Positions 21,479-64,000 of a stretch of DNA of 64,000 bases are shown piece after piece. Source of the DNA: Eledone cirrhosa. Taxonomy: Eukaryota. The position numbers and the translations under genes were made by a program. The stretch lies in NCBI GenBank assembly GCA_964016885.1, contig OZ024755.1, positions 28,582,001 through 28,646,000 on the forward strand, read 5' to 3'. The notes beneath the pieces were generated by a model. It saw only the letters and a list, made by a program, of their open reading frames with translations. It was not told the origin of the DNA and made no database searches. Each line of letters starts with the position of its first letter. The stretch's first letter is position 1.

Positions 21479-21615
<137 letters not shown>

Positions 21616-23988: not shown

Positions 23989-24033
<45 letters not shown>

Positions 24034-30479: not shown

Positions 30480-30668
30480 GGCGGTGGATTGGCAGTATCG
30501 GTAGAGGGTCGGACGCCATGCTTTCCAGCATAGTTACGTCCCTTTACGATCTGGGTTCAAATCCCGCCGAGGTTGACTTTGCCTTTCATCCTTACGGGGT
30601 CGATAAAATAAAGTACCAGTAATGCACTGGGTAATTGCTGGCCTTGTGCCTAAAGTAGAAACAATTAT
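30480..30668 (+). mobile_element. tRNA-derived SINE (Meta-like central domain)
   Basis: TGGCAGTATCGG A box, GTTCAAATCC B box, gcctttcatccttacggggtcgataaaataaagtaccag core. Confidence 0.88.
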
Positions 30669-30789
30669 ATGTTTTTTCCCGTTCTTTGCCAGGGAACGTT
30701 TCCACCAACCAAAGTATCGTCTTCCTGTCTTCCTCCGGTTGCAACGTTTTTTGAAATATCCACTTGTGCGTTCACAGACTGACTTTGTT

Positions 30790-30840
30790 AGTTTCAGAAG
30801 ATCCCGTTAAGGGTGAAAGCAGCGATTCTTTGCTTAAACT
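30790..30840 (+). ncRNA. Type I hammerhead with variant core CAGAAGA
   Basis: aguuu CAGAAGA ucccguuaagggu GAAA gca...ugc UU aaacu; three stems intact; identical copy at 49865-49915. Confidence 0.7.
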
Positions 30841-30878
30841 TTGATCTGTTATTTTAATAAATATATATATATATATAT

Positions 30879-32015: not shown

Positions 32016-33216
32016 GGAATACCGACTTTAGGGGAGTATAGGTCTCACCGACTAAAGTAAGTTAGTCTAGCTCATATAATCGTCTCCCTACATGGTTTGA
32101 AGAACAAAAAAAAAAAAAAAACCACAATACTAACCGTAACAAATCATTGGAATAACCAATATTGGAAGAATTTGTTCTATCGCCAGAGGAGGATTCTTTG
32201 GAACAAGAAGAGGTATTGATCATATAGTATAGAGACTATTTCGTATGGTATCCAACACGCTGCGTTGCTGGACTACTAAATGAACAAATCTATATTTATA
32301 TCAGGACAATGCGACGGACATGTAATGTCGTTAGAAATAGTAGCAAAAAACCATCTAAATCAACTCTTTGTTAGTAAAGCGTTTGATTCTTCGACTGAGC
32401 GATGTGTTGTGATGAGTTGTGACATCACTGGTGCTAAGCTGTATCGGTCTTGGACAACATCGCTTGCGTAAATACTATGCATGGTTGACTGCTGGCCTTC
32501 AACATAACTACTTTGCTCGGGTATATGCTTTGGCGGAGAAACTTCTAAATGCAAAAGCCATTATCATTCATAACGTAAAGGGTCTTTACTCTGTTTATAT
32601 AATCGAGTGTTGGTTGCTTATAGAATCAGTTAATAATATTTTCATGATGCATATGTGGATGCACACTCCCAGTTTACTACTGAGTATGCTTTGGCATATA
32701 TCTAAGCGGGGGGAGTTGTACATTCATCTTTTTAGTGTATCGTTGATCATATGAAGGCCTTCATTTTAGCTATCATTTCCTTGGGTCAGAAGTTGTTCGA
32801 GTTCTTCCTTAAAACGTCAATTCGGTGCATCAAAAGGTCTTTTGCTTTTAGCAAAATCTTCAAAGTGATTCTAGGCAATGTATTAGGATACATTCTGATA
32901 GTCGATGGCGTAGTATCATTGCCACAAAGCCAAAGAGACGTGCTTTGATGAGTAACTCATTGTTTGTAATATGGCATTTCCTTTACTTTGTATGAGGTGC
33001 CGCAATTACGGATGTTAGAATCGTTCCAATTGTTTACAGGCTGTAAGCTTAAGGCTCTAAATCTCGATAGCATAATATAGAACTGAGAAGGGAACTGTTT
33101 TAAAGAACATATTTTTCGTTTTGAGTAAGAGACAGTAATTTGTAAAGACTCGGTAAACGAGCTCGCCATTTGTATTGTAAGAAAATTTAATTCTATTATT
33201 AATGTCACCTATGTAG

Positions 33217-33445
33217 GGCAGTGGATTGGCAATATCAGTAGAGGGTCGGCGCCATGCTTTGCAGCCGAGAGTTACAGCCCTTTATGATCTGAGTTCAAAT
33301 CCCGCCGAGGTTAACTTTTCCTTACATCCTTACGGGGGTCAATAAAATAAAGCACCAGTCGATAAAATAAAGTACCAGTCACGCACTGGGATCGACTTTC
33401 CCTCCCCTAAAATTGCTGGCCTTGTGCCTATATAAGAAACCATCA
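33217..33445 (+). mobile_element. tRNA-derived SINE (Meta-like)
   Basis: Same family as 30480, with internal duplication of gataaaataaagtaccagtc. Confidence 0.85.
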
Positions 33446-34165
33446 TTAATGTCAACTTTAAAAATGGTTACGGTTGACACGATATTGCCAGCATAGGATA
33501 TTTGGCTGACAGTTTCCATGGTTTGGCCTCCAATGTGGACGTGATCATCTGGTCTTTTATATCAGTATCCTCGTTTGTCAACATTAACATGCTTTCCAAA
33601 ACACTGATATATTTCGTTTATCTGTGTGGTTCTGCAGTCACCAGAAGATCAGTTTCACTGCTTGCAGGTGTTTCATTTCACTGTCATCGACTTATTGTAG
33701 CTCAAACACTCCGTTCGCAGTAGATTTTGTATTGGAGCGGAATTGACAATAATTGCACAACCCACCATCTAACGCGTATCGGACGTCGACGAATGAAAAT
33801 TAAAAAGATAACACTTATGGAGCAGATGGCTCCTCTCCTTCTCGCAGTTACATCTTGGATGGTCTGTTGGATCGAATGCGGGAAGGTTGAGAGTGTGTCT
33901 ATGTTTCCTTGCGGCTGAATTCGCTCCTTAAACATTCTTAGCAAATGCATGATACACCATTCAAAGTCATGATTGATTGCGAGGGACAGCTATAGATATA
34001 AAGTTAGTTTCTTTCTTGCTGGCTGTATATAGAAAGATAATTGCTTTCACGAATGTGTTATCTATTTAAAATAATCAATCCCGTTTAAGTTACGGGGAAC
34101 CTAGTTAGTACTTAGATATGTGACAGCTTGGGAACCCTAGGTGCTGTAAGCATTGAAAAAAATGT

Positions 34166-34316
34166 GAAGGCGCATGGCTTGCTGGTTAGAGAGTTGGATT
34201 CGCCATTCTTGAGCAAGACACTTTATTTCACGTTGCTCCTTCTGCCAGGAGTTGCGACCGGTGGCTGGTATCAACAATGGAAAAAGCAATGGAAACAAAA
34301 GTGTCCTTGGTCCGAG
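34166..34316 (+). mobile_element. CORE-like SINE, internally deleted
   Basis: gaaggcgcatggc...cttgagcaagacactttatttcacgttgctcc...gttgcgaccg; matches the 15068 copy. Confidence 0.7.
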
Positions 34317-35095: not shown

Positions 35096-35317
35096 GATTG
35101 ATGGTTTCTTATATAGGCACAAGGCCAGCAATTTTGGGGAAGGGGAAAGTTGATTAAATCAACCCCAGTGAGTGACTGGTACTTTATTTTATCGACCCCG
35201 TAAGGATGAAAGGCTAAGTTAACCTCGGTAGGATTTGAACTCAGGCCGTAAAGGGCCGTAACTCTATGTTGCAAAGCATGGTGTCCGACTCTATACCGAT
35301 ACTGCCAATCCACCGCC
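35096..35317 (-). mobile_element. tRNA-derived SINE (Meta-like) with 16-bp TSD
   Basis: TSD attgtttcgagtgtaa at 35080-35095 and 35318-35333. Confidence 0.9.
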
Positions 35318-36599
35318 ATTGTTTCGAGTGTAATATGGAAATAGTTTTCCTACTATGAAACCAAAAATGCTCGAATTTATTTTATTTTAAACTCGTATGA
35401 GAAGTCCAATGAATACTTATTTATTCACAGTAGGTTATTATTATTTAATGTTATAAGTGATTTTGTTCTTGTTAATGCTTCTATTGTTGTTGTTGTTGTT
35501 GTTGTGTTCTTCTTGTGTTTTTCAGTCGTGAATTATAAACCCTATGAGCAATGTCTAATCTAGTTGATATGATCGTTTCTATATTTTTGTTTTATTCAAA
35601 CAGAATTAATTTCGTCAATGCGTTCAAGTTTATTTAAGACGGTAAAAAGTGAATTGAGAGAGATATTGCTGCTATTTCTAGCTGTTTTTTATTGTGCAGA
35701 CAAGCTTTTATTAAAGATGTGTTGTGGACGACAAAATAGAGCACTACATAAACTTGGGGTATTTATTTATGCATCTTTATAGACTAAATCTGACTCGACT
35801 CAGAGCTCAATCATTTTCTATCGTTTAATTATGTACCAGTTATTAATTGGGTACATTTACTTTTTTTAACTTTTCTCTGTTGTATTTTACATGGGATCTT
35901 TCTTAGGCAGTTTCTACAGCGTATCAATATTATTAAAAGTAATTCCGTCAGCCCTTTCTTAGTTTCTAGAGAAACTTATGTAGTGAATGGTCGCCAAGGA
36001 ATTTTGAGCGAGAGAAAAAGGAGGAGAGAAAAAGGGAATTTAGAGAGGGAGAAAAAGGGGGAGAAAAGAGGAAATTTAGAGAGGAACAAAAAAGGGGAGA
36101 AAAGAGGGAATTTAAAAAGGGAGAAAATAGGTGGAAAGAGGGAATTTAGAGAGGGAAAAAAGAGGGAATTTAGAGAGGGAGAAAAAGGGAGAGAAAAGAA
36201 GGGGAAAGCGGGAAAGAAAAAGTAGAGAATTTACCACAGTACTTTTTTGGTATGTTATCTATCGACGTTGTAAACCATAAAGGGGTCATCGACCTCGGCT
36301 GGATATGAACTCAGAGCTTACTGACATCAACTTTTAAGCCGCTGTCACATAACAGCAGACTCAAAGTTGGTGGGTGTGGCTCCGCCATGTTTTTTTTGTT
36401 TTTTTTTCGAAAAAAGTTATATTTTGTTTTAAACAAAGTTCAAATATTTGGGCCAAAATGCCCATATATTATAGGGTCCCCTTCACCCGGCAAAGTCCAA
36501 GGGCTTTTGTCCCGTACACGTTTTGTAAGAGCTAAATAAAGAGACTTAAGAGAGCGAGCAAAAAGACGTACGACCACACCAATAACCAATAACTAATAA

Positions 36600-37112
36600 T
36601 AATTGTTTCTACTTTAGGCACAAGGCCAGCAATTACCCAGTGCATAACTGGTACTTTATTTTATCGACCCCGTAAGGATGAAAGGCAAAGTCTACCTCGG
36701 CGGGATTTGAACTCAGATCGTAAAGGGACGTAACTATGCTGGAAAGCATGGCGTCCGACCCTCTACTGATACTACCAATCCACCGCCCATAATAATAATA
36801 ATAGTAATAATGTTTCTACTTTTGGCACAAGGCCAGCAGTTACCCCAGTGTATTACTGGTAGTGATAATTATTTCTACTTTTGGCACAAGGCCAGCAGTT
36901 ACCCCAGTGTATTACTGGTAGTGATAATTATTTCTACTTTTGGCACAAGGCCAGCAGTTTCCCCAGTGTATTACTGGTAGTGATAATTATTTCTACTTTT
37001 GGCACAAGGCCAGCAGTTTCCCCAGTGTATTACTGGTACTTTATTTTATCGACACCGTAAGAATGAAAGGCAAAGTTAGCCTGGTGGGATTTGAACTCAG
37101 AACGTAAAGTGC
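36600..37112 (-). mobile_element. Two adjacent Meta-like SINEs; the second has its 60-bp tail in four tandem copies
   Basis: Full copy 36600-36787; tttctacttttggcacaaggccagcagtt...tattactggta x4 at 36812-37040. Confidence 0.85.
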
Positions 37113-37500
37113 CATAATAATAATAATAATAATTTCATTTATTGGCCACAAGGGCCGACATGTAGGGGAAAATACAAAGACACGGACAGATGGGTTTACA
37201 ATAAGCTCCAGTAAAAGTGCACAATAGCAAAAACAATTTAACAATGAAAATATAAAATAAACTATGTATAAACAAAATAAATTCCCCAATAGTGGGGTGG
37301 ACGACCCAGGGCCGACTCAGGTACACCACCTTCCTGAACCACCCGACGCTTCTAGGGCACCCCTCTCCTCCTCAATTTAACCAGCCTACAGGCGCATGGT
37401 CAGAGCGCGCTCTCTCACACGGGCCATTCTCGCCAGATTCATCCTTTTAGCAAATGTATGGGGGGCAGCACTTCTCTCTCCACCCTCACCTTCCAATAAT
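37113..37500 (-). mobile_element. L1/Tx1-like LINE 3' end
   Basis: Minus translation KVRVEREVLP...NLARMARVRERALTMRL*, then UTR, AATAAA and (ATT)n tail. Confidence 0.6.
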
Positions 37501-39818: not shown

Positions 39819-40209
39819 AGATCAAAAGATGGTTAAAGGAGTTCAATATATTTTATTATGCGCATTTCAAAAACAAACATCATCAAACAATAATATTTGT
39901 GTTTTCATCAGATAAAACAGGAGAACATGATATGAAGGCTAAAAAAACACTTGTTGATAGTGCAGTTTTAAATCAACATATCATTTTTTTTTAGCCTTCA
40001 TATCATGTTCTCCTGTTTTATCTGATGAAAACACAAATATTATTGTTTGATGATGTTTGTTTTTGAAATGCGCATAATAAAATATATTGAACTCCTTTAA
40101 CCATCTTTTGATCTTATATTATGCATACTCCAGTCCCACAAACTGTAGAGTGCTTCTTATCCGATATCTGCATTGCTTTATTGTACTACAATAAAACTCA
40201 CCTCCTACA
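39812..40209. mobile_element. Family B inverted-arm insertion (HHR at 40016-40082 plus mirror copy)
   Basis: Same outer end points as the 15791 copy but a different central junction. Confidence 0.85.
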
Positions 40210-40261
40210 TATATATATATATATATAGGTGTATATATATAAATAAATAAATATATGTATG

Positions 40262-40737: not shown

Positions 40738-40741
<4 letters not shown>

Positions 40742-40932
40742 TTTTAATATAGATGAGATTCTACAGGACTAGAACTGTTTCATTCATTAGAAATCATCAG
40801 GAATCAGGATGATTTCTAATGAATGAAACAGTTCTAGTCCTGTAGAATCTCATCTATATTAAAACTGTTATACTCTGCTATGTATTGAGTACCTTACTTA
40901 CTGTGGTTACCTCCGATTCAACCCGGAATAAC

Positions 40933-40968
<36 letters not shown>

Positions 40969-41034
40969 TTTTAATATAGATGAGATTCTACAGGACTAGA
41001 ACTGCTTCATTCTTTAGAAATCATCGGAATAACG
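40738..41034. mobile_element. Family C: two inverted-arm insertions with a minus-strand HHR (40757-40805)
   Basis: 40738-40805 is the reverse complement of 42601-42665; direct arm 40808-40933; second short copy 40965-41034. Confidence 0.8.
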
Positions 41035-41341: not shown

Positions 41342-41418
<77 letters not shown>

Positions 41419-41562
41419 GTTATTCCGGGTTATACGTTATTCCATATTTATACATATGTATACTCGTGTTTGTATGTATGCGTGTGAGTGTATTTACTTG
41501 TGTATATATATGTGTGTATGTGTGTATGTATGTGTATGTGTGTGTGTATCCGTGTGTGTGTG

Positions 41563-41852: not shown

Positions 41853-42600
41853 ATATGTGTGCGTATGTATATGTGTATATGTATTTTATATATGTATGTA
41901 TGTATGTATGTGTGTATGTATGTGCGTGTACATGAATATATATTTGTATATATTTATATACTTTTTTTATATATGTGTGTGTGTTTTTATGTGTGTATTT
42001 GTGTTTATGTGTGTGTTTATGGTTGCGCGTAAGTGTGTGAGTGAGTATGTGTGTTCTTTTGGGGTTTTTTTTTTTTTTTTTTTATTAGGTGGGTTTTTTT
42101 TTGTTTTTCTGTTTTTTTGGTTTTTTGGGGTTTTTTTTGTTTTTTTGTGAATGTGTCTGTTGATTTGGCATACTGTTGATTAGTTTAAGAGAAGTTCGAA
42201 GATAATAGTAAGATATGCACTCAGTATTTTGAATCTGTCTGCAGAATTCCCTAGACTTAGCAGAACTTAGCAGAACTTAATGACTTTAGCTTTTAAAGAA
42301 TCTCCCTTTTCTTTAATTCTATCGAGCATGAATGACCCCCCACTGATTTTATAGACATCTGCTAGCTTAAGAGAAACTTATTGACAAGGAATGGTATGCC
42401 ATCCGGAACTTGTTTATAGATTTCTGTCTGCCTTTGTTACTCTAAAAACATAAATAAATATAAATTAACTATAGCTATGTAGAATTAGCCTTTAATGAAT
42501 TCCCTTCTCTATCAACCAATGACCTGCACCCATCCCACTCCCCACCCTCTCCTACCACTTGTAGAGACCTATAAATACCATATTTATTTTTTGATACCCA

Positions 42601-42649
42601 GATTCCTGATGATTTCTAATGAATGAAACAGTTCTAGTCCTGTAGAATC
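42601..42649 (+). ncRNA. Type I hammerhead ribozyme, family C
   Basis: gauuc CUGAUGA uuucuaaugaau GAAA cag uucuaguc cug UA gaauc; GUA cleavage after 42644. Confidence 0.82.
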
Positions 42650-42662
42650 TCATCTATATTAA

Positions 42663-42736
<74 letters not shown>

Positions 42737-43168: not shown

Positions 43169-44275
43169 TATATGAAGTATAAGAATCAAAGAACTGTTCA
43201 AAACATTATTGTGCTTACAGCTGTTTCCTCCAAACCGAGGTTTGGATTCTTCGGAGCAATTTATTAATGCATGGACAGTTATATGACCTCCTTTTCAGCC
43301 GAGAGACATACCAATACATATTCAAACATTGATACATATTCAAACATTGTGGGTCAACATTCATTACAGAATTTAGAGTGGCAGTACACACTTCGAGATT
43401 ACATTTATATTAATAGGTACAATCAAAAATCAAAGATATAGGTTAAAGTACAACATGAAGATAAGTGGTTATATAGTGCAAATGTTATATGTGTGGCACG
43501 CATGTGCGTCTTGTTTATATAGTGTGGCAGAGAGATATGTGTGGTAGAGGCACTTAGGTAGGTAAATAAGAGTGTTAGGTTGGTAGATCTGGTGGCAAAG
43601 TCTTTATATGATTGATATAGTCTGTGTGTGGAGAAATATTATAAGCATTAAAGATAGTGCAAGCATTAAAAGTGTTATAAGTATTGGAGATGCACAGCGC
43701 AGGGATGTCAAGTAATTCATGTACTTCGGCATTTTCATGGTCAAGGGAGTGTATATTTCGATTATATGCCTTTCACATAATCCACGACAATCCAGTTAGA
43801 GATCGTAGTCTGGTGTTCTTTAGTTCGATACAGGAGGTTGTTACGTTTCGAGAGACGCCATTGAATACCGGAAGTGTGTGTGTGGCTAAGGGGAGTTAAT
43901 GCATGCGGGGAGGTAACTCTGGGGTTTCTATATCTAGCCATTAAAATGTGTCCCAATATAGACCCTAAATTCTATGGTGAGGTGCACCTTCCAAGAGAGA
44001 CTTTTAAAGCATAAAGTGTACTAACTATAGAGTAGTTTAACTAAATTATGCTGAAGGTGATCATATTATTATTAAGGTGGATTAACCCATCTTAAGGTGC
44101 TACAAATGGAAATTATAGATGATGAGCGAGGATTCTAAATTAATGATCTCTGTGGTTGTAGTCTGCTCATATGACCAGGCGCGGTGATTGCAGGATTGCT
44201 TCAGGACCCAATGATCTCTGGTAAGATCTGGGTCATCGCTTGCTACATTGGATGTCGAAAGATAATCGTCCCCAG
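43169..44275 (-). repeat. 1107-bp inverted copy of the element's 3' UTR
   Basis: Mirror ORFs 43684-43899(+)/47789-48004(-) are identical; paired coordinates sum to 91688 at both ends, so no net indel. Confidence 0.95.
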
Positions 44276-44526
44276 CACAATAATGTTTTGAACAGTTCTT
44301 TGATTCTTATACTTCATATAACTGCTCTGTAAATCATCTGATGTTTTTACATTGAGCTACTTAACTTACTGGTAATAAGGTAGTAATACATCACTGCCTA
44401 CCACTATTTAGGGTGTGTGTAAAATACTTACAACTGCTTAAGGTTTTGTGTTTACATAACCATAAATAGTATAACTAATACTATTAACTGCTCCATATCG
44501 TTGAGCTGACATATAATATTGCCAAT

Positions 44527-46986
44527 ATGCTAATCAAAGACCAACTCCCCATGTCAACCAAGAACATACCAATACCATCCAGGAATACATATGAGAAATT
44601 GCTGATCAACAGTGTAAATTCATTTATCAATAGAGTGAGATGGAGGACATTCCATTATGATAGAAACAAATCTAACAACTTGAATAATACTAACAATTTT
44701 GACTCCTTCGGCTTTAAAACCTTTAAAAGCCCCCCTCATAACACTCTACTTAACTCCTTTGAAAATGACCTAGTTAAACTAGTTAAGAACATTAAATACA
44801 ATAAGCACCATATTAGAAGCAACACCTTCTTAAACAAACTTAACACTTCTATTAGTGGATTCAAAACTAGTAATAAAATTATTGTACACGCAGATAAAAC
44901 TAATAACATATACAGCCTAGATTATATTACTTATAGAAAGTTTATATATAAGGAACTACATAAAAGCTACAAAAAAACCACCTTGAAAAACTTAGAAGAT
45001 ATTAATGTAGAGGGTTATAATATAGTGTCTAAACTAGGACTACAGAGGCATACACAACCTTTCACTCCGAACCCCCCTAGATTCTCTCTGAAGGACCATA
45101 AGGAGAACTTCATCAGCAACCCCACGATAAGACTTATCTGCCCTTCCAAGTCCGACATTGGTATTATCAGCAAGAAGATTTTGGATAAAATCATCCCACA
45201 AATTAAACACAAGATACACCTTAAACAATGGGGAAATACGGGTGAAGTAATTGAATGGTTTAAGGATATCAAGAATAATAAGAACAAAAAATTTATTCAA
45301 TTTGATATCAATTCATACTACACCTCTATTTCCCCTATCCTATTAAATAAGGCACTTATCATGGCCATGACCAATAGCGACCTGACTAGAGCCCAGGTTG
45401 ATGTCATCCTTGCGGCCCGTAAAACCATAATCACCTTCGAGGACCAACTATGGACACGCAAGGATACGCACAACAACTTCGACATAACCATGGGATCTAG
45501 TGACTCGGCGCAGGTCACTGATTTGGTCGGCCTATACCTCCTCAATGAAATCCATAAAGACCTCCCTTACCTCAACGGTGGTTTGTACCGCGATGATGCA
45601 CTTCTACTCATAGAATATAAAAAATTTAATATAGAAAGAACTAGAAAACAACTGCATAAGACATTCAAAAACTTTAACCTTAGTATCACCATGGACAAAA
45701 ACACTAAAAATGTTAACTTCCTAGACGCCACACTATACCTAGACTCAAAAATATATACACCTTTCCATAAGCCTAATGAGAAACTTATTTACGTAGATAC
45801 CAAGTCTAATCACCCTAGATCAATATTAAACTCTATCTCTAAGGGGGTGTCCAATAGAATCACTAGTCTGTCCTATGACGCAAACATATTTAGCAAAAAC
45901 TCACAATATTACAATCAAGCATTAGCTAGCTCCGGCCATAATATAGAAATAGAGTTCCTACCTAAGAAAACACATAGCTACAACATCATCTCGCACAACA
46001 TGTCCATGAGGAAATCTAATAATAGGAATAGCAACCACAAGTACACCAAAGCGGAGGGTGCCACCGGAAGTAACCATTACCATGGAAACTACTGTGAGGC
46101 CTTAGGAGGAAGCAACACACCAAACACTAAAAGCAAAAATAGAAGAAGAAATAATACATTTTTCAACCCTCCTTTCAACCTAAATGTCTCCACCAACATA
46201 CCTAGGGCTTTCTTCTCACTACTAGATAAAAACTTCCCTCTAGGACACAAGTACCACAACCTCTTAAACAAAAACACCATTAAAATCTCATACTCTACGA
46301 CGCCTAACTTAACATACCACATAGCTAGCAGCAATAATAGTAAAATTAGTTCTTACTTCCAACAAACAAAATCACAACGGGATGCAAACCCTCTAAATAC
46401 CACTGTAGCAAGCAACAATAGCAACGGCAGTAACAATAGAAATAGCACTAGTATAAGTAATAACACCAGGGTTGTCAACCTGAACACCCAAAATCCTATA
46501 TCCACCACACAGACTTCCGCATTGCATTATAACCAGCGGACTAACGCACAGAATAATTGTAACTGTAGAGCTAATAGAACCTGCCCTTTAGATAAAAAAT
46601 GCCTAACCAAGGATGTCATATACTCATGCACAGTCACGACTAATAACTCTTCAGAAACCTATGTAGGCTCCAGTTCTAACTGCTTCAAAATTAGATATAA
46701 CTCGCACATCCACTCGTTCAAAAAGCACAGCCTAGCCAACTCCACCTCACTTTCTAGCTACATACACTATCTAAAATCTAAAAATAAACCATACACACTC
46801 AAATGGGAAGTGATAGGCAGCGCGACCTCGTACAAACCACCTAATAAATTCTGTAACCTCTGTATACTAGAGACACACAATATTATCTTCTCCAACCGTA
46901 ACCTACTTAACAAAAAATCTGAGGTGTTTGCAACTTGCCAGCACCGCCTCAGACATTCCTTCCAAAACTTTAAGCCCTATATATAG
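44527..46986 (+). CDS. PLE polyprotein: reverse transcriptase plus C-terminal GIY-YIG endonuclease (819 aa)
   Basis: N-term STKNIPIP..FINRVRW; ADKTNN; LKDHK; FIQFDINSYYTSI; MGSSDSAQVTDLVG; GLYRDD; FFNPPF; CNCR..CPLDKKCL; VIYSC..YVGSS; CNLC..E; LLNKKSE..CQH. Confidence 0.96.
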   Translation: MLIKDQLPMSTKNIPIPSRNTYEKLLINSVNSFINRVRWRTFHYDRNKSNNLNNTNNFDSFGFKTFKSPPHNTLLNSFENDLVKLVKNIKYNKHHIRSNTFLNKLNTSISGFKTSNKIIVHADKTNNIYSLDYITYRKFIYKELHKSYKKTTLKNLEDINVEGYNIVSKLGLQRHTQPFTPNPPRFSLKDHKENFISNPTIRLICPSKSDIGIISKKILDKIIPQIKHKIHLKQWGNTGEVIEWFKDIKNNKNKKFIQFDINSYYTSISPILLNKALIMAMTNSDLTRAQVDVILAARKTIITFEDQLWTRKDTHNNFDITMGSSDSAQVTDLVGLYLLNEIHKDLPYLNGGLYRDDALLLIEYKKFNIERTRKQLHKTFKNFNLSITMDKNTKNVNFLDATLYLDSKIYTPFHKPNEKLIYVDTKSNHPRSILNSISKGVSNRITSLSYDANIFSKNSQYYNQALASSGHNIEIEFLPKKTHSYNIISHNMSMRKSNNRNSNHKYTKAEGATGSNHYHGNYCEALGGSNTPNTKSKNRRRNNTFFNPPFNLNVSTNIPRAFFSLLDKNFPLGHKYHNLLNKNTIKISYSTTPNLTYHIASSNNSKISSYFQQTKSQRDANPLNTTVASNNSNGSNNRNSTSISNNTRVVNLNTQNPISTTQTSALHYNQRTNAQNNCNCRANRTCPLDKKCLTKDVIYSCTVTTNNSSETYVGSSSNCFKIRYNSHIHSFKKHSLANSTSLSSYIHYLKSKNKPYTLKWEVIGSATSYKPPNKFCNLCILETHNIIFSNRNLLNKKSEVFATCQHRLRHSFQNFKPYI

Positions 46987-48429
46987 CAATGTCGGACTGG
47001 AACCTAACACCACATCTAGCATCAAACACCAGAGACACACCCTATACTACATACCCAACACTAGCTGATCCATTATAACACAAACAACGACATCCCTCTG
47101 GAACCCTTCGCAGGGAAAATACCCATTTATACCTCTACGGCAGGTGTGACAACATCCACCCACCTGGACGGCACTACACCGCTCTAAGGGTAATTTGAGC
47201 ATGAATTGATCGGTTGGATGGTGTTGGGCAGAGGAAACACCTTCCTTAGACAGATGTAAAATGATTTAATCGAGTAGCGCTGTTGACCAGTAGGACCGGG
47301 CTGCTGAGCGCAATGAGTGAATGCAATGCAACTGCCGTGCGGGTTGTACGTATATGGATGATCTGACGGTCAGAGAGGGGTCGCGAGGACTGCGGATTGA
47401 CCTTTGGCCTGCCTGGGGACGATTATCTTTCGACATCCAATGTAGCAAGCGATGACCCAGATCTTACCAGAGATCATTGGGTCCTGAAGCAATCCTGCAA
47501 TCACCGCGCCTGGTCATATGAGCAGACTACAACCACAGAGATCATTAATTTAGAATCCTCGCTCATCATCTATAATTTCCATTTGTAGCACCTTAAGATG
47601 GGTTAATCCACCTTAATAATAATATGATCACCTTCAGCATAATTTAGTTAAACTACTCTATAGTTAGTACACTTTATGCTTTAAAAGTCTCTCTTGGAAG
47701 GTGCACCTCACCATAGAATTTAGGGTCTATATTGGGACACATTTTAATGGCTAGATATAGAAACCCCAGAGTTACCTCCCCGCATGCATTAACTCCCCTT
47801 AGCCACACACACACTTCCGGTATTCAATGGCGTCTCTCGAAACGTAACAACCTCCTGTATCGAACTAAAGAACACCAGACTACGATCTCTAACTGGATTG
47901 TCGTGGATTATGTGAAAGGCATATAATCGAAATATACACTCCCTTGACCATGAAAATGCCGAAGTACATGAATTACTTGACATCCCTGCGCTGTGCATCT
48001 CCAATACTTATAACACTTTTAATGCTTGCACTATCTTTAATGCTTATAATATTTCTCCACACACAGACTATATCAATCATATAAAGACTTTGCCACCAGA
48101 TCTACCAACCTAACACTCTTATTTACCTACCTAAGTGCCTCTACCACACATATCTCTCTGCCACACTATATAAACAAGACGCACATGCGTGCCACACATA
48201 TAACATTTGCACTATATAACCACTTATCTTCATGTTGTACTTTAACCTATATCTTTGATTTTTGATTGTACCTATTAATATAAATGTAATCTCGAAGTGT
48301 GTACTGCCACTCTAAATTCTGTAATGAATGTTGACCCACAATGTTTGAATATGTATCAATGTTTGAATATGTATTGGTATGTCTCTCGGCTGAAAAGGAG
48401 GTCATATAACTGTCCATGCATTAATAAAT

Positions 48430-48476
48430 TGCTCCGAAGAATCCAAACCTCGGTTTGGAGGAAACAGCTGTAAGCA
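48430..48476 (+). ncRNA. Minimal type I hammerhead of the PLE, variant core CCGAAGA
   Basis: ugcu CCGAAGA a-uccaaacc-uc-gguuugga-g GAAA cagcug UA agca; palindromic CAGCUG; mirror copy 43212-43258 (-). Confidence 0.8.
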
Positions 48477-48683
48477 CAATAATGTTTTGAACAGTTCTTT
48501 GATTCTTATACTTCATATAACTGCTCTGTAAATCATCTGATGTTTTTACATTGAGCTACTTAACTTACTGGTAATAAGGTAGTAATACATCACTGCCTAC
48601 CACTATTTAGGGTGTGTGTAAAATACTTACAACTGCTTAAGGTTTTGTGTTTACATAACCATAAATAGTATAACTAATACTAT
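48473..48683 (+). repeat. 3' copy of the 211-bp pseudo-LTR
   Basis: Matches 44274-44484 (offset 4199). Confidence 0.95.
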
Positions 48684-49744: not shown

Positions 49745-49937
49745 CGTTTTTTCCCGTTCTTTGCCAGCGAACGTTACCACGAACCAAAGTATCGTCTTCC
49801 TGTCTTCCTCCGGTTGCAACTTCTTTTGAAATATCCAGTTCTGCGGTTACAGATTGACTTTGTTAGTTTCAGAAGATCCCGTTAAGGGTGAAAGCAGCGA
49901 TTCTTTGCTTAAACTTTAATCTGTTATTTTAATAAAT
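49745..49937 (+). mobile_element. Solo 3' end of the second PLE family, with HHR at 49865-49915
   Basis: Matches 30670-30861; (TA)n flanks. Confidence 0.8.
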
Positions 49938-50626: not shown

Positions 50627-50765
50627 ATAGGAAAAAGTATGTCCCCGACGGCAGAGCTCACGCCGTTTCAACGGCTATTTCTGGACTATTACCCACTCTA
50701 CTACCCAAAGTATTGAGTAATCTAGGGCGTTATGGTCCATCTGGCTCCTTACGACGTCTCCTTCG

Positions 50766-50768
<3 letters not shown>
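50627..50768. mobile_element. Family A element (left arm plus tail)
   Basis: ataggaaaaagtatgtccccgacggcagagctc...ctattacccactctactacc...ccttcgtta. Confidence 0.75.
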
Positions 50769-51209: not shown

Positions 51210-52167
51210 GTATATATATGTATATATATATATATATGCATATATATATATATGTGTATATATGTGTGTATATATATAAACGTGTGTGTGTTTGTGTTTG
51301 TATAAGGGAGAGGCTAGAAAAAAAAAACAGTGATGCGGAAAAATCCAAAATGGTGGATGTTTAAAAAAAAAATGAAACTGAAAGATAATAGATAAAAAAA
51401 ATGGCGTGGGTGGTGATTACCATGTCGAAGTGGCTTCATAGCAGGATGTAGATATACACTTCAAACAGTTGATATAGAAATGTTGGAACGAGTTAATTGC
51501 TGCGTTGAGGCATAAACTAATACCACATGAAATATAGAAATATTTGAACAACACTACGTACCAGACGTCAATAGACTATAGAATCTTTTTATTTTAAATC
51601 CCCCAGACTGTATAAAATGGTATTATATTTAAAGGAGAATAACAAAATAACAAAGTCACGCTCGATGTTTTCAGCAATCATTCTTCGGTTTTATTCTTAG
51701 CTTTCATAAGTTTGTTTAACTATTTACCACTTTAAGCTGAACAACAACAAACCACAATACCGCAAAACATGCTGCAACATTTGTGTCTACAACCCAACGA
51801 GGGACTGGCTTACCAACCAAATCGTTTGTCTTAAGAACGCTGATGACTCACTAGGAGACAAGAGCCCGGGAGCTTTAGACATGAAATAATTTTAGTTATA
51901 GGCCTTCTCATTCTGAGATAACCTAGGCTTAAGTCATAAATAACAATAACAACAGTACTTACAATCTATCAAGTGAACTAATATACTAACCTCCAACCTG
52001 TTTGATATTACAGTCAAATCTTTCTCAAATGCCATAAGGATTCCATTCTGTAAGTTACTACTAGGTACAGTATGAGAAAAATAAATAAAATGGCGTTGTA
52101 GTCATTAATCTTTCACCTTTAGTCATAGGTTGGTCTACTTAATTAGGATCAGCATGCCACTAAATAA

Positions 52168-52356
52168 TAATTGTTTCTACTTTTGGCACAAGGCCAGCAA
52201 TTATGCCAGTGTATTACTGGTACTTTATTTTATCGACCCCGTAAGGATTAAAGGCAAAGTTAACCTCGACAGGATTTGAACTCAGACCATAAAGGGCTGT
52301 AACTCTTTGCTGCAAAGCATGGCGTCCGATCCTCTACCGATACTGCCAATCCACCG
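52168..52356 (-). mobile_element. tRNA-derived SINE (Meta-like)
   Basis: Reverse complement of the 30480 family. Confidence 0.87.
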
Positions 52357-52954
52357 CAATAATGTCTTTCATTTTTGATATTCACTCCGTGCTGTAGTTA
52401 ACATCCTTGGATAGTTACAAAATCGGGGTTTCAATAAATAAGCGTCGTTAATCTCTTGTTTTCTCCTTCTCTACTTAGGGACGATAGAAATAATTTACCT
52501 CGCAATTTTTCGTAGCACAACATGTCGATTTAAAAAAAAAAAAAAAAAAAATAGAACGAAAAAGAAAGAGATAGGGATGGAAGAAGGGATTTCATTACTA
52601 GACTGGTCTATAAAAAATATATATGGAACTCAGATATGTTAAAGAAACAGTATACCTAAAATACATTTCAGCTCACTGAGAGCTGGAAAACAGCAATGTT
52701 ATCACCCCCAATACTAAAGAATATATTTTTTAAAAACCTAACAAGACTATAATGCTAGATCATGGAGAATGGCATGAGAGAAAGAGGAGAACATCTGCCG
52801 AAAATGGATCAAGCCCAAATGCTTACAACAGGGTTGTCTCTTCTAATGTTTTCCACGGGCATGATAGTGGTATTATAATAGCTGACACATTAAGTCTAAA
52901 ACCCTGGTAATTCACAGTGGAGCATTTCCTCACGTTGAATACAAATGGCTCAAG

Positions 52955-53445
52955 TACGAGTGTCGGCTGATATGTCCACAAGCTGACCAAGATACTTTCA
53001 TGGAATGTGAACAAGTGAGGTTCATTGTTCGACATAGTTCCCCTTTGGGCTCCCAACATATCTTCCATCGGTGATGCAGTGCTATTTAGTCGAATAGGGA
53101 CGATGATCCACCAGATCAAACCAGTTATGCACAGAAACCATTGAAACCAATGACTTGTGTGCTGGAGTATTGTTCTAAGGAAACAAGACCTATTTCTTCA
53201 GGTTTATTGTGCTTTCGTGCTTGATAGCCTTGATAGCAAGTTGGCATAATACTCTCCCTTGAGTATGTGACTCTTCTGCTGATAGTCAATAAACAAAATG
53301 CCTTTTTGCATCCCAAGAAGCTCTGGTCATGTTCTTCCTGGAGATGAAATGACCTTGGCCTTCGTGGAAGCAGGGGAGGAGGGGTGTTTCCAATGCCTAG
53401 ATTGTCTCTTTATCTCTGGCTCAAAGTGATGAACCCAACACTCAT
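52955..53445 (-). mobile_element. Mariner transposon remnant
   Basis: Minus translation ECWVHHFEPEIKRQSRHWKH..KAKVISS..WDAK.ILFIDY..GEYYANLL..NTPAHKS..DLVDHRPYS; TIR-like tacgagtgtcggctga at 52955. Confidence 0.88.
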
Positions 53446-53618
53446 TCTGGCCTAGTTTGCATGCAAAGAAATGAAGTGGTTATTAATAAGAACCATTGAA
53501 ATTAATGCATGCAACATTTCACAGCTATCGCCTCATTCACTCATAATCAACCTATGAACTTCTCATCCCACCCTCAAACCAAATTGCAAGATATGACAGA
53601 TTCACCATTACAACCAAT

Positions 53619-53670
<52 letters not shown>

Positions 53671-53694
53671 ATATATATATATATATATATATAC

Positions 53695-53934
53695 AACGAA
53701 GGAGTTGTGGTAAGGAACAAGGTGGACCATAACGCACCAGAGTACTCAATACTTAAGGTAGTAAAGTGGGTAATATGTAGATTTAAAACTGCACTATTCA
53801 CAAGTGTGTTTTAACCTTCATATCATGTCTCCCTATTTTATCTGACGAAAACGCAAATGTTATTGCATGATGATATTTGTTTTTGAAATGCGCATAATAA
53901 AATAGATGGAACTCTTTTAACCATCTTTTGATCT

Positions 53935-53941
<7 letters not shown>
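53695..53941. mobile_element. Chimeric insertion: inverted family A tail plus family B body with HHR
   Basis: 53695-53775 is the reverse complement of the family A tail; 53779-53941 is the family B body (CTGACGA at 53842). Confidence 0.8.
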
Positions 53942-54000
<59 letters not shown>

Positions 54001-54708: not shown

Positions 54709-56344
54709 CCCTCTCTCTCTCTCCCTCTCTCTCTCTCTCTCTCGAAGAAGAAGAAGAAGAAGGAGAGAGAGAGGGAGAGAGAGAGAGAGGTTTAAACTAT
54801 TTCTTTGATCTCAAGTGACAACATACAGGTGGCAATCAATTATGTTATAACAAAGTTTCCTGCATGTTTTTTTTTGCCAGAAATTGGAGCTGCTGTTTTA
54901 TTCTTTAAATTGATGATAAATTTCATGTTAACCCTTATCCAACAAAACGACATCTAAAAGTATTCCAGCCAGGTATGCCCTGATAGTTTCATGTAGAAAA
55001 TATTTTCATTTTTTATCTTTCAGTTACCGTATATGCCGGCCCACAAGTCTACATTTGGAGCCTTAAAATATTTCTCCAAAACCAGTGGTCGGCTTGTCTG
55101 CCAAGTATGAAATGTGGAAGTATGCGTGCTGCTTCATCTGAACTACAATTCAGGATTTTAGGGGTCGACGTATACGCCGGCATATACGCTATATGAAAAA
55201 AAGACCAGAACACAAAACATGGACCAGATACCTTTGCAGTTCTATCTATCCACCACCATCGAGCAGGTGGATTCGCGGTATCGATAGAGCGTCAGAAATC
55301 ATGCTTTGCAGCGTAGAGTTGTGGCTCTTTACGGGATATTCAATATGTCTCGATCTGATCTGTATTCAAATATGGTCGAAATCAACTTCATTATTGGCAG
55401 TATCTCAGTTCAAGTTCCACCGAAGTTAACATTACCTTTCATCCTTACGTGGTCGGTAAAATAAAGCACCAGTAATTAACTGAGTTCGATTTAATCGTCT
55501 TTCCTCTCTCTCCTCAAATTGCTGGCCTTAAGTGTATAGCAGTAATCATTTTTTTTTTCATCGACACCAGAAAAACCAAAATGTAAACTTGACTTTGGCC
55601 TTATTTGAACTCAGAGTGCAGTAAAGTAGAAGAAATACGACAATGCATTTCGTTGTACGCTTTTATTATTCTACGAGTTTTTTTCATTGACCAATTTGTT
55701 ACTGAAACGCCCGGTTGATGGTAACTGGTTCAAATTAGGACTCTTAATGTATGCAGCATACTCCAAGTAAACCAATAGAAGAACAGTTATTACACAATTA
55801 CAGTAACGATACAAGTAGGAAAAGCATACGTATGGTCCCGTAACTCCTAATAGAATATCAGGAACGCTGTATTGATAAACGGCGTTTCTTGGACATTTTA
55901 AACCTGGCCGAGCCGATCTCTCTCCTCTCCAGGCGTTAGTACAACAGATTTCTTCCAGACAAAGATAGAAAGTGAGAGAGAGGAAATGAAAAAGAGATAT
56001 AGAGGAAGAATCGACCCCAGTACGAGACTGGTACTTTTTTATACTGACCTGGGAAGTATGAAAGGAAATGTTGAACTCGGAGAGATTTGACCTAAGAGAG
56101 CAGAGAGCCTGAACAAATACCATAAAGCATTCTATCCAGCTCTGCTCATTCGACTTTGCTAAGTCTTCGCCTACCAAAGTATTATCTCATGAATAAACAA
56201 ATAAATATGCATGCAGTGAAAAGAATATTATTATCGTTTGATTAATGGTAAAATTCCTTAAAAGATTTTGTAGGTGTTTTTTAAAGCGTCAGATTTGTAA
56301 GCTTTTTGTTTTAGTTCTCTCCTGTATTATTATATCTCCCTTAC

Positions 56345-56534
56345 GGCGGTGGTTTCGCAGTATCGGTAGAGGGTCGGACGCCGTGCTTTCCAGCATAGTT
56401 ACGTCCCTTTACGATCTGAGTTCATATCCCGCCGAGGTTAACTTTGCCTTTCATCCTTACGGGGTCGATAAAATAAAGTACCAGTAATGCACTGAGGTAA
56501 TTGCTACCTTGTGCCTAAAGTAGAAACAATTATT
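56345..56534 (+). mobile_element. tRNA-derived SINE (Meta-like)
   Basis: Family match; ttattatatctc on both flanks. More decayed copies lie near 19130-19330, 38540-38640, 55262-55548, 56010-56150 and 57650-57800. Confidence 0.87.
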
Positions 56535-56676
56535 ATATCTCTCTTATTTCAGGAGATCGCAACAGAACCAACTCCTGATGGCCAGCCTTCAAACATAGCC
56601 ATTCCAGTTTATACTGATATCATTGTCCCAATGTTAAATATAACGAAATGAGTCACAACTATACTTCATATTTTGA

Positions 56677-57979: not shown

Positions 57980-58228
57980 TAACAGCAGCAGCAGTAGTAG
58001 TATTAGTGGTAGTAGTAGCAGTAGTAGTAGTAGTGTTAGTGCTGGTGGTGGTAGTAGTAGTAGTAGAAGTAGTAGTAGTAGTAGTGCTAGTGCTCGTGGT
58101 GGTGGTAGTAGTAGTAGTAGAAGTAGTAGTGCTGGTGGTGGTAGTAGTAGTAGTAGAAGTAGTAGTAGTGCTAGTGCTGGTGGTGGTAGTAGTAGTAGTA
58201 GAAGTAGTAGTAGTAGTAGTGCTAGTGC

Positions 58229-58263
<35 letters not shown>

Positions 58264-58495
58264 GAAGTAGTAGTAGTGCTAGTGCTGGTGGTGGTAGTAG
58301 TAGTAGAAGTAGTAGTAGTAGTAGTGCTGCTAGTGCTGGTGGTAGTAGTAGTAGTAGTAGTAGTGCTAGTGATGGTAGTAGTAGTAGTAGTAGTAGTAGT
58401 GCTAATGTTGCTAGTGGTGGTAGTAGTAGTAGTAGTAGTGCTAGTGCTGCTAGTGGTGGTGGTAGTAGTAGCAGCAGTAGTAGTAGTAGTAGCAT

Positions 58496-58526
<31 letters not shown>

Positions 58527-58582
58527 TGCAGTAGTAGTAGTAGCAACAGCAGTAATAGTAGTAGTAGTAGTAGTAGTAGTAG
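57980..58582. repeat. (TAG/TGG/TGC)n compound microsatellite
   Basis: Direct inspection. Confidence 0.9.
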
Positions 58583-58963
58583 GTGTTTTTGTTGTTGCTT
58601 TTTGCTGTTATCTTGTTTCAACCCAATGTCAGCTCCGATTATATAAAATGAATCTATGACCGAAAACAATGCAACTATGACCATTTGGCTGCTCTTTCTA
58701 GCAGATGAAGACAACTGAAGGAAAGGTTGCTGGTCGCTAGCTTACAGAAGAAGCACACTGCTGTGGCGGCCGTAGTGGTTGGTGTAGCAGTGGTAGTTAC
58801 AGTTGTAGTAGCTATGATGAAAGACCGTAGTAGGAAACAAGAAATAGTGGGTGGTGTTACTGAAGAAATGTCAATATCGGCGTCCAACAAGGACAACGAC
58901 AGTGGTGGCTGCTGCAGATATAGCAATTGTGGCTAGCAACAGTTTCATTGGTGGACAACATCA

Positions 58964-59032
58964 CTAGTAGTAGTGGTAGTGGTAGTAGTAGTAGTAGTAG
59001 TTGTAGTAGTAGTAGTAGTGGTAGTGGTGGTA

Positions 59033-59069
<37 letters not shown>

Positions 59070-59092
59070 TGGTGGTAGTAGTGGTGGTAGTG

Positions 59093-59123
<31 letters not shown>

Positions 59124-59170
59124 TTGTAGTAGTAGTGGTAGTAGTAGTGGTAGTGGTAGTAGTAGTAGTG

Positions 59171-59213
<43 letters not shown>

Positions 59214-59224
59214 TAGTAGTAGTG

Positions 59225-59279
<55 letters not shown>

Positions 59280-60850
59280 TAGTAGTGGTAGTAGTAGTGG
59301 TAGTAGTAGTAGTAGTTGTAGTAGTGGTGGTAGTAGTAGTGGTGGTAGTAGTGGTAGTAGTGGTTGTTTTGGTAGTAGTAATAGTAGTAGTGGTGGTGGT
59401 TGTGGTAGTAGTAATGGTAGTATTGGTGGTTGTTGTGGTAGTAGTAATAGTAGTAGTGGTGGTTGTTTTGGTAGTAGTAATAGTAGTAGTGGTGGTTGTT
59501 TTGGTAGTAGTAATAGTAGTATTGGTGGTTGTTGTGGTAGTAGTAATAGTAGTATTGGTGGTAGTTGTAGTAATAGTAGTAGTGGTGGTTGTTTTGGTAG
59601 TAGTAATAGTAGTAGTGGTGGTTGTTTTGGTAGTAGTAATAGTAGTAGTGGTGGTGGTTGTGGTAGTAGTAATGGTAGTAGTGGTGGTTGTTTTGGTAGT
59701 AGTAATAGTAGTATTGGTGGTTGTTGTGGTAGTAGTAATAGTAGTATTGGTGGTTGTTGTGGTTGTAGTAATAGTAGTAGTGGTGGTTGTTTTGGTAGTA
59801 GTAATAGTAGTATTGGTGGTTGTTGTGGTAGTAGTAATAGTAGTATTGGTGGTGGTTGTAGTAATAGTAGTAGTGGTGGTTGTTTTGGTAGTAGTAATAG
59901 TAGTAGTGGTGGTTGTTTTGGTAGTAGTAATAGTAGTAGTGGTGGTGGTTGTGGTAGTAGTAATGGTAGTAGTGGTGGTTGTTTTGGTAGTAGTAATAGT
60001 AGTATTGGTGGTTGTTGTGGTAGTAGTAATAGTAGTATTGGTGGTTGTTGTGGTTGTAGTAATAGTAGTAGTGGTGGTTGTTTTGGTAGTAGTAATAGTA
60101 GTAGTGGTGGTTGTTTTGGTAGTAGTAATAGTAGTATTGGTGGTTGTTGTGGTAGTAGTAATTGTAGTAGTGTTGGTGGTTGTGGTAGTAGTAATGGTAG
60201 TAGTGGTGGTGGTTGTGGTGCTGGTTGTTTTGGAAGTAGTATTGGTGGTGGTGGAGGTGGCGGTGGTTGTTGTTTTAGTAGTACTATTAGTAGTAGTAGT
60301 AGTAGTAGCAGCAGCAGCAGCACTAGTTGTAGTAGTAGTGTTAGCAGTATTATTAGTACTAGTAGTAGCAGCACGAGTAGTAGTAGTAGTGGTTGTGGTG
60401 GTGCTGGTTGTTGTGGTAGTAGTAGTAGTAGTAGTAGTATTAATAGTAGTAATATTGGTGGTGGTGGTAGTGGTGGCACTGAAGTGGCGGTGGTGGTGGT
60501 AGTGGTGGTGGTACTGATGTGGTGTGGGTGGTGCTGATGTGGTGGTGGTGGTGGCACTGAAGTGGCGGCGGTGGTGGCGGTACTGATGTGGTGGTGGTTG
60601 TGGTACTGATGTGGTGGTGGTTGTGGTACTGATGTGGTGGTGGTTGTGGTACTGATGTGGTGGTGGTTGTGGTACTGATGTGGTGGTGGTTGTGGTACTG
60701 ATGTGGTGGTGGGTGGTACTGATGTGGTGGTGGTGGTGGTGGTGGTGGCACTGAAGTGGCGGCGGTGGTACTGATGTGGTGGTGGTTGTGGTACTGATGT
60801 GGTGGTGGTGGTGGTAGTAGTGGTACTGAGGTGGTGGTGGTGGTTGTGGG
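58964..60850. repeat. AGT/GGT triplet array with 24-30-bp higher-order units, then a 23-bp repeat
   Basis: ggtggttgttttggtagtagtaatagtagt units 59360-60200; ggtactgatgtggtggtggttgt units 60579-60810. Confidence 0.9.
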
Positions 60851-61685: not shown

Positions 61686-62256
61686 GTAGTAGTAACCTCA
61701 TCAGATACTTACAGGTTACAACATTAGCACTAAAAAATGCCATTCAGATGTAGAGGTTGTAGTAGCAACTGTATTGAGGCTGATTTCAGAGGTGCTGTTA
61801 GTATCAATCGTTTTGAGACGGTTTTAGGAGGCTCAGCCGAGATATTAGGGCATTTTTTTTCAGGAACGTAATGTCAGGAATGTGATTCCCTTTCCAAACA
61901 GTGCCTTGTGACCTTGATAATTGCATTTACTTCCATCCTGTTCCTGTCTACCCTGCCAGAATTTTAAACAAATGACAATATATAGCAGACGTGTGTAAGC
62001 CTTGCGAGGAAATGGCGTCCCATTTGAAGATACTTTTGTACACTCAGTTGCCTAAAGATTCACAAAACTGAAAATAACTCCGGCTGGGGGTCTCTCGGCT
62101 TTATACACGTTTCACCTAACTTTCAGAAGTAGAGGTGGTACAGTCCTTAGTCCTTCCCTAATAGCTGATGGAACTGTAAATGCTCTGTCACTGCATGCAG
62201 CTGGTCTTGGGCATCGAGGTTCTTTCCATGTCTGCGTACCTAATAATTCTAAAAAT

Positions 62257-62447
62257 AATTGTTTCTTTATTGTTGGCACAAGGCCAGCAATTATACCAAT
62301 GCATTACTGGTACTTTATTTTATCGATCCCGTGAGGATGAAAGGCAAAGTTAACCTCGGCGGGATTTTAACTCAGACCGTAAAGGCGCACAACTCTATGC
62401 TGCAAAGCATGGCGTCCGACCTTCTACCGATATTGCCAATCCACCGC
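62257..62447 (-). mobile_element. tRNA-derived SINE (Meta-like)
   Basis: Reverse complement family match. Confidence 0.87.
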
Positions 62448-62499
62448 TTTCAAAAATGATAAGAACCGTTAATAATCTTTGAAAGAAAACTATGTTGCT

Positions 62500-63562: not shown

Positions 63563-63752
63563 ACTTAAAGTATCTCAAAACTCGACACGCATCGAGTATC
63601 TAAATATGGTGCAATCATCCCACTTCAGGTCCTAGAAAATTGATATTTTCCCTCGAGAATGACTGAAGAGAAAGGGAGAAGAGATATATAGAGAGAGGAA
63701 GCGAAACTAAAACCAGCATCTCTGATTAGTACATTACTTATAGACACTGAAA

Positions 63753-63939
63753 AATCGCGGTGGATTGGCAGTATCGGTGGAGGGTCGGACGCCATGCTTT
63801 CCAGCATAGTTACGTCCATTTACGATCTGAGTTCAAATCCCGCCGAGGTTGACTTTGCCTTTCATCTTTACGGGGTCGATAAAATAAAGTACCAGTAATG
63901 CACTGGATAATTGCTGGCCTTGTGCCTAAAGTAGAAACA
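63753..63939 (+). mobile_element. tRNA-derived SINE (Meta-like) with 20-bp TSD
   Basis: attacttatagacactgaaa at 63733-63752 and 63940-63959. Confidence 0.9.
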
Positions 63940-64000
63940 ATTACTTATAGACACTGAAAGGATGAGTTTAATTCGGCGTCATTTGAACATTTATCAACAG

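Follow-up and report, generated by a model that had tools for sequence, protein, structure and literature searches.

The closest described systems are Penelope-like elements. A protein of the Poseidon clade was found in vitro to cut and extend both target strands, with RT starts at two sites, one on either side of the tail, and its predicted form is a dimer (PMC11167929). This element, PAc from Anolis, resembles the model proposed below in that it initiates at an AC-rich stem-loop and has two starts around its tail; it differs in belonging to another clade and in that, in the part of PMC11167929 available to us, a single RNA species was tested. The features given for the Hydra clade in PMC8557442 are a (TA)n target, the motifs RW(K/R), DKT, CxCX5C, CxxC and CxH, plus GIY-YIG at the C terminus, and File S1 of that paper includes Hydra-1_Obim from Octopus bimaculoides as a Hydra family. 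The elements studied here share with this clade the protein motifs (in an element that we call D), a hammerhead near the 3' end laid out as in File S2 (in families B, E and G), the (TA)n target, the head-to-head 5'-truncated inverted copy, and a tail at one end only. They differ from it in having tails of 65-165 nt rather than 30-40 nt, and D differs further in its 1.7-kb 3' region and in having no match on its + strand to the hammerhead core CTGANGA..GAAA. The accessible text of PMC8557442 also describes inverted arms from one family only and has no shared tail stem-loop, unlike what we report below.

Two models compete to explain head-to-head inversion in these elements: self-priming on an antisense template (PMC3846280) and two-strand, two-site priming (PMC11167929). 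The self-priming model, from a paper in which the pLTRs act in trans, addresses the same head-to-head structure that we find here but needs a fold-back at the junction (PMC3846280). The bridges formed by L1 (10.1101/2024.08.27.596794) resemble our locus in that two cDNAs are joined by microcomplementarity, and one such bridge consists of two distinct 5'-truncated L1s, inverted and joined at their 5' ends. They differ in that twin priming uses one RNA, and the two-RNA bridges link distant tumour breaks through one family's machinery and poly(A) priming. Non-LTR retrozymes, described as non-autonomous PLE derivatives (PMC7229834; 10.64898/2026.07.22.740005), are, like families B, E and G, short AT-rich repeats with a type I hammerhead, whereas the copies described here are dispersed and two-armed rather than tandem, and family A has no complete core.

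Two-site priming, trans-mobilization, non-autonomous PLE derivatives and the 5'-to-5' joining of two L1 cDNAs are already published. Our search of the open literature, which excluded subscription papers, found no Penelope insertion that joins two families head-to-head, no stem-loop shared by Hydra tails and no SINE driven by Penelope, and the available part of PMC9977147 held nothing bearing on the novelty of a cross-family Penelope insertion.

Layout of the chimeric insertion

The window, by which we mean the whole stretch of 64,000 nucleotides from Eledone cirrhosa that was analyzed, is AT-rich, microsatellite-rich animal sequence. For each element family we distinguish two kinds of 3' end, one short (T1) and one tailed (T2), the latter lying 65-165 nt beyond T1. 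The locus of interest is an insertion of about 250 bases inside a TA microsatellite, in which a reversed family A tail stands head-to-head with a family B body (Table 1). An earlier, sequence-only reading had described it as a fusion of these two parts between (TA)n tracts, and BLAST bore this out, placing the start of the A end at 53694, one base ahead of the position given there.

Table 1. Coordinates of the features discussed, as positions in the window
Feature	Position	Strand	Basis or remark
(CT)23 upstream of left TA tract	53620-53666		
Left (TA)n target tract, (TA)13	53668-53693	.	Repeat scan
Whole family A tail, T2 (left) to T1 (TATTA)	53694-53775	-	BLAST, alignment; putative T2-primed cDNA arm
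Bulged stem-loop in A tail of the chimera	53744-53767	-	4-bp lower stem, 4-bp upper stem, 2-nt bulge
Junction microhomology ATA	53773-53775		At T1 of A and at the endpoint of the other B T1 arms
Family B body ending at T1	53773-53941	+	BLAST, alignment; putative T1-primed cDNA arm
Type I hammerhead motif in B	53833-53905	+	Core CUGACGA 53842, GAAA 53885, stem III palindromic, cleavage predicted after 53896
Right (TA)n target tract	53942-53998		(TA)32 run itself spans 53935-53998
B/B insertion, tail reversed (69 nt) plus body, overlap GTT	25332-25561	.	Comparison locus
A/A insertion, T2 arm also halting at T1	50630-50768		Control for arm length in the chimera
Element D, Penelope-like	43174-48683	+	BLAST, open frame, motifs
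D inverted arm, T1 end	43174-44275		1102 bp, no differences from source
D pLTRs, T2 end	44274-44484 and 48473-48683		211 bp, identical
D open frame	44488-46986	+	Stop-to-stop length 832 codons; RT and C-terminal GIY-YIG

When 53660-53960 was compared with the window by BLAST, 53668-53775 matched family A tails in reverse, with copies at 15416, 27701, 50687, 23341 and 505 (best E 2e-38), and 53773-53941 matched the B bodies at 15959-, 25397+ and 39981- (best E 3e-75). Microhomology at such junctions had been suggested as a check, and the A and B matches do overlap by 3 nt (ATA), with neither TA repeat nor filler at the joint. The A part is a complete 82-nt tail that differs from the A copy at 15.4 kb at 7 of 81 positions and begins with C at 53694, where T is usual; the B arm has 13-18 differences from other B bodies in 132-169 nt. 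Both outer ends had been called the usual termini of their families. They are indeed real ends, but of different kinds, the left being the tail end T2 of A and the right the short end T1 of B.

Because no significant similarity was found between A and B on either strand (shuffle p 0.93, 0.90 and 0.17), they are distinct families, and since they share no inverted homology, self-priming cannot by itself make this locus. The idea that the 5' start of B is an A-like end on the opposite strand was not supported (p 0.17).

Reads and contigs were searched with 53690-53945 at 80% likeness in runs X1, X21, X22 and X4. None of the records listed, which are the best 16 of 10,477 pieces (10,461 more exist, with 408 further loose ends), spans the joint, which is taken from the assembly alone. 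In two RAD runs, 17,751 and 19,336 reads aligned, and depth drops more than 10-fold across the junction. At 53775, 8,840 and 9,331 reads leave the reference with a consensus that is A body, and 1,286 and 1,704 reads, probably from few loci, run past 53942 into B tail with an agreement of 0.98-0.99, as does one X4 contig that passes the T1 of B. These two exits indicate that the A tail and the B body normally belong to separate elements. Where reads (414 and 462) and contigs (29) leave B upstream, their consensus, at an agreement of 0.53-0.69, is non-TA and ends in TTTTC, and because other B copies continue in this way, the ATAT at the start of B is likely to be template rather than leftover target. 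Nearly private letters, shared with no more than about 10% of other copies, occur at 2-3 of the 82 positions of the A part and at 3 of 169 in the B part (best 40 of 178 rows; Fisher p 0.4-0.66), counts that are compatible with one age for the two parts. The private letters of this copy stand at 53719, 53764, 53779, 53808 and 53905.

Two-armed insertions of single families

The geometry of the chimera had been likened to that of 25331-25561, where both parts come from B, and the likeness holds. There, 25332-25399 is a reversed B tail, identical at 83 of 83 positions to 40141-40223 when the flanking TA is counted, and 25397-25561 is a B body that overlaps the tail arm by 3 nt; in full B copies, T1 is followed by an 89-nt B tail (16125-16213, 40122-40208). 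We scored by hand all insertions in the window with two recognizable arms, namely five of A (at 0.4, 15.3, 27.6, 30.9 and 50.6 kb), three of B (15.8, 25.3 and 39.8 kb), two of E (40.7 and 41.0 kb), D, and one of F (14.1 kb). One T1 end and one T2 end were present in all 12 of these same-family insertions, a count in which the F tail is assigned presumptively and the T2 arm of E at 41.0 kb is only 9-10 nt long; the chimera has the same pair of ends. Single-family insertions thus make up 12 of the 13 resolved two-armed insertions of the window, and the chimera is the thirteenth.

The A copy at 23.3 kb (23230-23428) was left out of the count of ends, as we could not identify its left neighbour. 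This neighbour, 23230-23285, is not A; it is similar to a TA-bounded piece of 57 nt found at 24029-24085 (score 35, 0 of 2000 shuffles, for a pair picked from about 5,800 comparisons), so that the copy is possibly a second chimera or a local duplication.

Both arms of the chimera end where arms end elsewhere. T2 arms also halt at T1 at 50687 (A) and 14180 (F), other T2 arms falling short of T1 or passing it, and of the other three B T1 arms, two share their last base with that of the chimera (15959, 39981), the third (25397) ending 4 nt short. Microhomology amounts to 3 nt at the chimera, 3 nt at 25397 and 2 nt at 44274. As both breakpoints are natural stops, random deletion would not favor them.

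The sequence-only reading had generalized from this locus to the view that inverted arms come from two independent priming events. As a rule by which the RNAs are chosen independently, this is not supported, given the single-family majority above and the private variants that arms share. The B arms at 39.8 and 40.0 kb have 0 of 133 differences between them and 4-5 of 133 relative to other copies, and the inverted arms of D and E show 0 of 1102 and 0 of 60. The A arms diverge more (3 of 51, 5 of 56 and 9 of 51), with the same subtype kept as judged by eye; the 2 differences in 153 between the B arms at 15.8 and 16.0 kb are not discriminating. Gene conversion between arms could add to their identity. 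Although reads of A are no less abundant than those of B, three of the four B insertions pair with B, which makes a random choice of partner RNA unlikely.

Further A/B chimeras, also anticipated by that reading, did not appear: there is no second A/B junction in the window and, at other breakpoints, none among the joints listed in the four runs. The sensitivity of this search is low, as the window's own B/B junctions are absent among the joints listed too, and any A/B chimera sharing this exact breakpoint would align straight through and hence not appear as a joint. Since the arms of ordinary insertions match and no other A/B joint is listed, we conclude that ordinary insertions use one RNA or one source and that two-RNA events are exceptions.

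The only strand-switch joint among those listed, from 53777 to 53897 in X21 (3 reads, 3 shared letters), was considered as a second A/B chimera and dropped, the 3 shared letters fitting a further B/B inversion that ends at this point of the B body, in keeping with a natural length for the B arm of the chimera. In this inversion the tail arm would stop one base past the cut site predicted for the hammerhead, a hint that the template was cleaved.

Tail stem-loop, element D and other repeats

In A, B, E and D, the tail opens with one common predicted fold, which combines a 4-bp stem (RCTY/GAGY), a 3' bulge of 2 nt and an upper stem that varies. A search of the window for RCTY-stem-loop-stem-2 nt-GAGY gave 16 matches, of which 11, from five families, lie 4-9 nt 3' of T1 (14195, 14404, 14611, 15424, 16130, 40127, 40872, 44324, 48523 and 50695 on the + strand, 53767 on the - strand). 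This pattern was defined after four of the five families had been seen; F played no part in defining it, and its stem-loop was found by the search. The bulge is TT or TA in 11 of 11 T1-adjacent matches as against 1 of 5 others. Upper stems differ and yet pair (TACT/AGTA, CAGT/ACTG, TGC/GTA, TGTAAA/TTTACA, GGAAA/TTTCT), and an A-U pair is replaced by G-C in D and F. As a free motif the stem-loop is not enriched (9 matches against a mean of 8 in 20 shuffles), and it is its position alone that is significant, the background being about 3 in 7,500 ten-base windows. The strict pattern fails in three of the seven A tails examined (27.7, 23.3 and 0.5 kb), and MAFFT did not align the stem-loops across families.

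A stem-loop just 3' of T1, apparently common to the tails of A, B, E, D and the tRNA-headed family F, is what is new here, and we predict that it serves as an RT-binding signal. Its presence in all five tails points to shared or same-clade machinery, not necessarily to one enzyme, and two related RNPs could serve the two ends. The earlier claim that A and B use the same enzyme is thus supported by the stem-loop as far as shared or same-clade machinery goes, but literal identity is not established.

By its motifs, D appears to be a Hydra-clade Penelope-like element. Its protein has RWR at 51, DKT at 136, YRDD at 367, CNCRANRTC (CxCX5C) at 691, VIY..YVG at 710, CNLC (CxxC) at 789 and CQH (CxH) at 817; there is only one Cys from VIY to YVG, so the GIY-YIG core has no CCHH cysteine pair. 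A Pfam scan of the frame gave nothing significant, and the relatives of the protein are either unnamed or hypothetical proteins of Argonauta hians (41-43% identity), the latter being the closest that are named. With its open frame, identical pLTRs and identical inverted arm, D is apparently intact and young, and it is a candidate source of the enzyme, or a relative of that source. No significant primary-sequence match was found between D and the A tail (p 0.22) or between D and the T1 region of B (p 0.06). Another autonomous family of Hydra-like type may have B as its 3' end.

Type I hammerhead motifs lie about 35-45 nt ahead of the short end in B, E and G, and A has only a GAAAC-stem-GTC half motif, with no complete hammerhead core. 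In B the motif and stems I-II appear to be present, and Rfam gave 0 hits, scores falling below the gathering thresholds. We also considered whether the B copy of the chimera belongs to a compensated hammerhead subfamily (fold z -2.4) and dropped this, as G53905 is private and several of the other letters are the majority state. No tandem array of B was found in the window, X1 contigs show only short partial B repeats, and an assignment of A and B to the tandem-array non-LTR retrozymes was likewise rejected, their copies being dispersed two-armed insertions. Two loci in JGI metagenomes that match a 20-nt B motif are alike over those 20 nt only and are unrelated coding DNA.

Family F (14116-14891 and 15066-15283, partial at 34164-34315) has a SINE-like body and a T1-type end on (TA)n. 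We take its head to be tRNA-like from A/B-box-like motifs seen by eye; ARAGORN found 0 tRNAs. At 14116-14270 an F arm in reverse adjoins a tail that has the shared stem-loop, and the F unit occurs in tandem with a period of 207. F is a candidate Penelope-mobilized SINE. Family G, which carries a type I hammerhead, occupies 14941-15055 on the minus strand and lies head-to-head with the F copy at 15066-15283 across a TA-rich spacer of about 10 nt; the outer ends of both are T1-like, so they are probably neighbours, though they form a second cross-family head-to-head pair.

Several other repeats were noted in the window. Family E (40739-41034, 41418-41431, 42598-42665) has a hammerhead and the T1/T2 structure, and its tail resembles that of A (p 0.01). 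Family C consists of two 190-nt copies (30671-30860, 49746-49935) that start alike at the 5' side and are anchored in TA at the 3' side, and in which no tail arm was recognized. Two 148-nt copies, 98% identical, lie beside TA tracts at 20637-20784 and 21333-21481 and have a CTGATGA core near their right end. An abundant 190-nt dispersed family is not tied to TA (30476-30668, 33180-33445, 35099-35331, 36596-37117, 52160-52360, with further copies of the same type at 55266-55529, 56345-56537, 62241-62480 and 63744-63949) and includes, at 36802-37038, a 59-bp tandem built from its 3' end. Large GC-rich tandem arrays (49-52 bp unit; CAC-type and AGT-type arrays that derive from trinucleotides) lie at 4043-13545 and 57993-60513 and contain long spurious frames.

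Origin of the insertion and its meaning

We consider the locus to be one Penelope-like (Hydra-type) insertion primed on two different RNAs, whose cDNAs were joined head-to-head, and give this reading a probability of roughly 55%; it is preferred because it needs the fewest extra steps. A Hydra-type RT/GIY-YIG enzyme would bind its RNAs via the bulged stem-loop 3' of T1 and nick both (TA)n strands. The left end would be primed at T2 of an A RNA, with the tail copied back to T1, and the right end at T1 of a B RNA, with copying to the habitual stop of B (ATATG). The 3' ends of the two cDNAs would then anneal at ATA, followed by fill-in. In the usual case both starts would lie on one RNA or source, giving same-family inversions, and here the partner RNA would have differed. 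That the two sides of one break were primed on two RNAs had already been proposed for this locus, and the head-to-head arrangement with one T1 and one T2 end agrees with it, but it is one locus only, and rivals remain. Against it also stand the one-armed insertions and close neighbours that occur in the window, and the arm of A itself: if the A RNA gave no T1-primed cDNA, nothing evident would make this arm halt at T1, a point that a single hybrid RNA fits better.

Such an RNA would come from a rare source locus in which a B body is followed by an A tail, and its insertion would be an ordinary single-RNA event. This would account for the T1 and T2 ends and for a tail arm halting exactly at T1, would agree with the rule that arms come from one source, and could build on the TATTA that both T1 sites carry at the same place before the stem-loop. 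Reads that cross the T1 of B enter B tail, however, although probably at few loci, about 9,000 reads per RAD run exit the A tail at T1 into A body, no joint from B T1 to an A tail is among those listed, and the tail is that of B in both tailed B copies of the window. These points make a common hybrid lineage unlikely, and an origin from hybrid RNA, which would then take a single rare source, is in our view quite improbable overall. A mis-join of two repeat copies during assembly or in a library is far less credible still. No contig or read among those listed spans the junction, and the runs that best cover 53020-53940 contain 0.60-0.61 of the sampled words, with no RNA run among those listed; against an artefact, A and B lack the homology that would cause a mis-join, the join falls on biological landmarks, and both parts have private letters in a canonical geometry.

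The structure could instead have been built in steps, with B inserted first and the left TA later priming the cDNA of an A tail, which joined the AT-rich 5' start of B with loss of anything in between, or with two neighbouring inverted insertions fused by a later deletion. In that case A and B could have been active at different times and with different enzymes. Elements of the window do insert into one another's TA tails (A after F at 15284, A after C at 30860, E beside E at 40933), one-armed copies are found (F 14722-14891, E 42598-42665), A tails run into ATATAT at 53769 in nine X1 contigs and one X4 contig, and inverted repeats are prone to deletion. Such a history keeps weight because neighbours are common and because G and F stand head-to-head across their short spacer. 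The joint of the chimera, however, is spacer-free and lies at the T1 of A and the habitual stop of B, whereas the neighbours at 15284, 30860 and 40933 keep 14-32 nt of TA. A tail-only A copy occurs at none of the six other A loci of the window, the private divergence of the A and B parts is similar, and the outer ends follow the T1 plus T2 pattern, although this last point is worth a factor of 2 only. On balance we find a stepwise origin somewhat unlikely.

Beyond this locus, it is tentatively possible that Hydra-type Penelope enzymes are two-RNA machines, each half of which binds any RNA with a small bulged stem-loop beside T1, which would let a single break be filled from two families, and that many passengers have acquired this signal, including the SINE-like F, which, if this is true, would be a Penelope-driven SINE. 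With one unconfirmed locus, the priming of a single insertion on two RNAs is a lead rather than a demonstration. Cross-family junctions are of use as natural barcodes: they cannot come from fold-back, and their frequency gauges how often the same RNA is used at both ends, so that a rare exception of this kind would let genome data test retroelement integration. Many of the (TA)n tracts of the window were seeded by such elements, and the stem-loop offers a concrete cis signal and a means to recognize their passengers.
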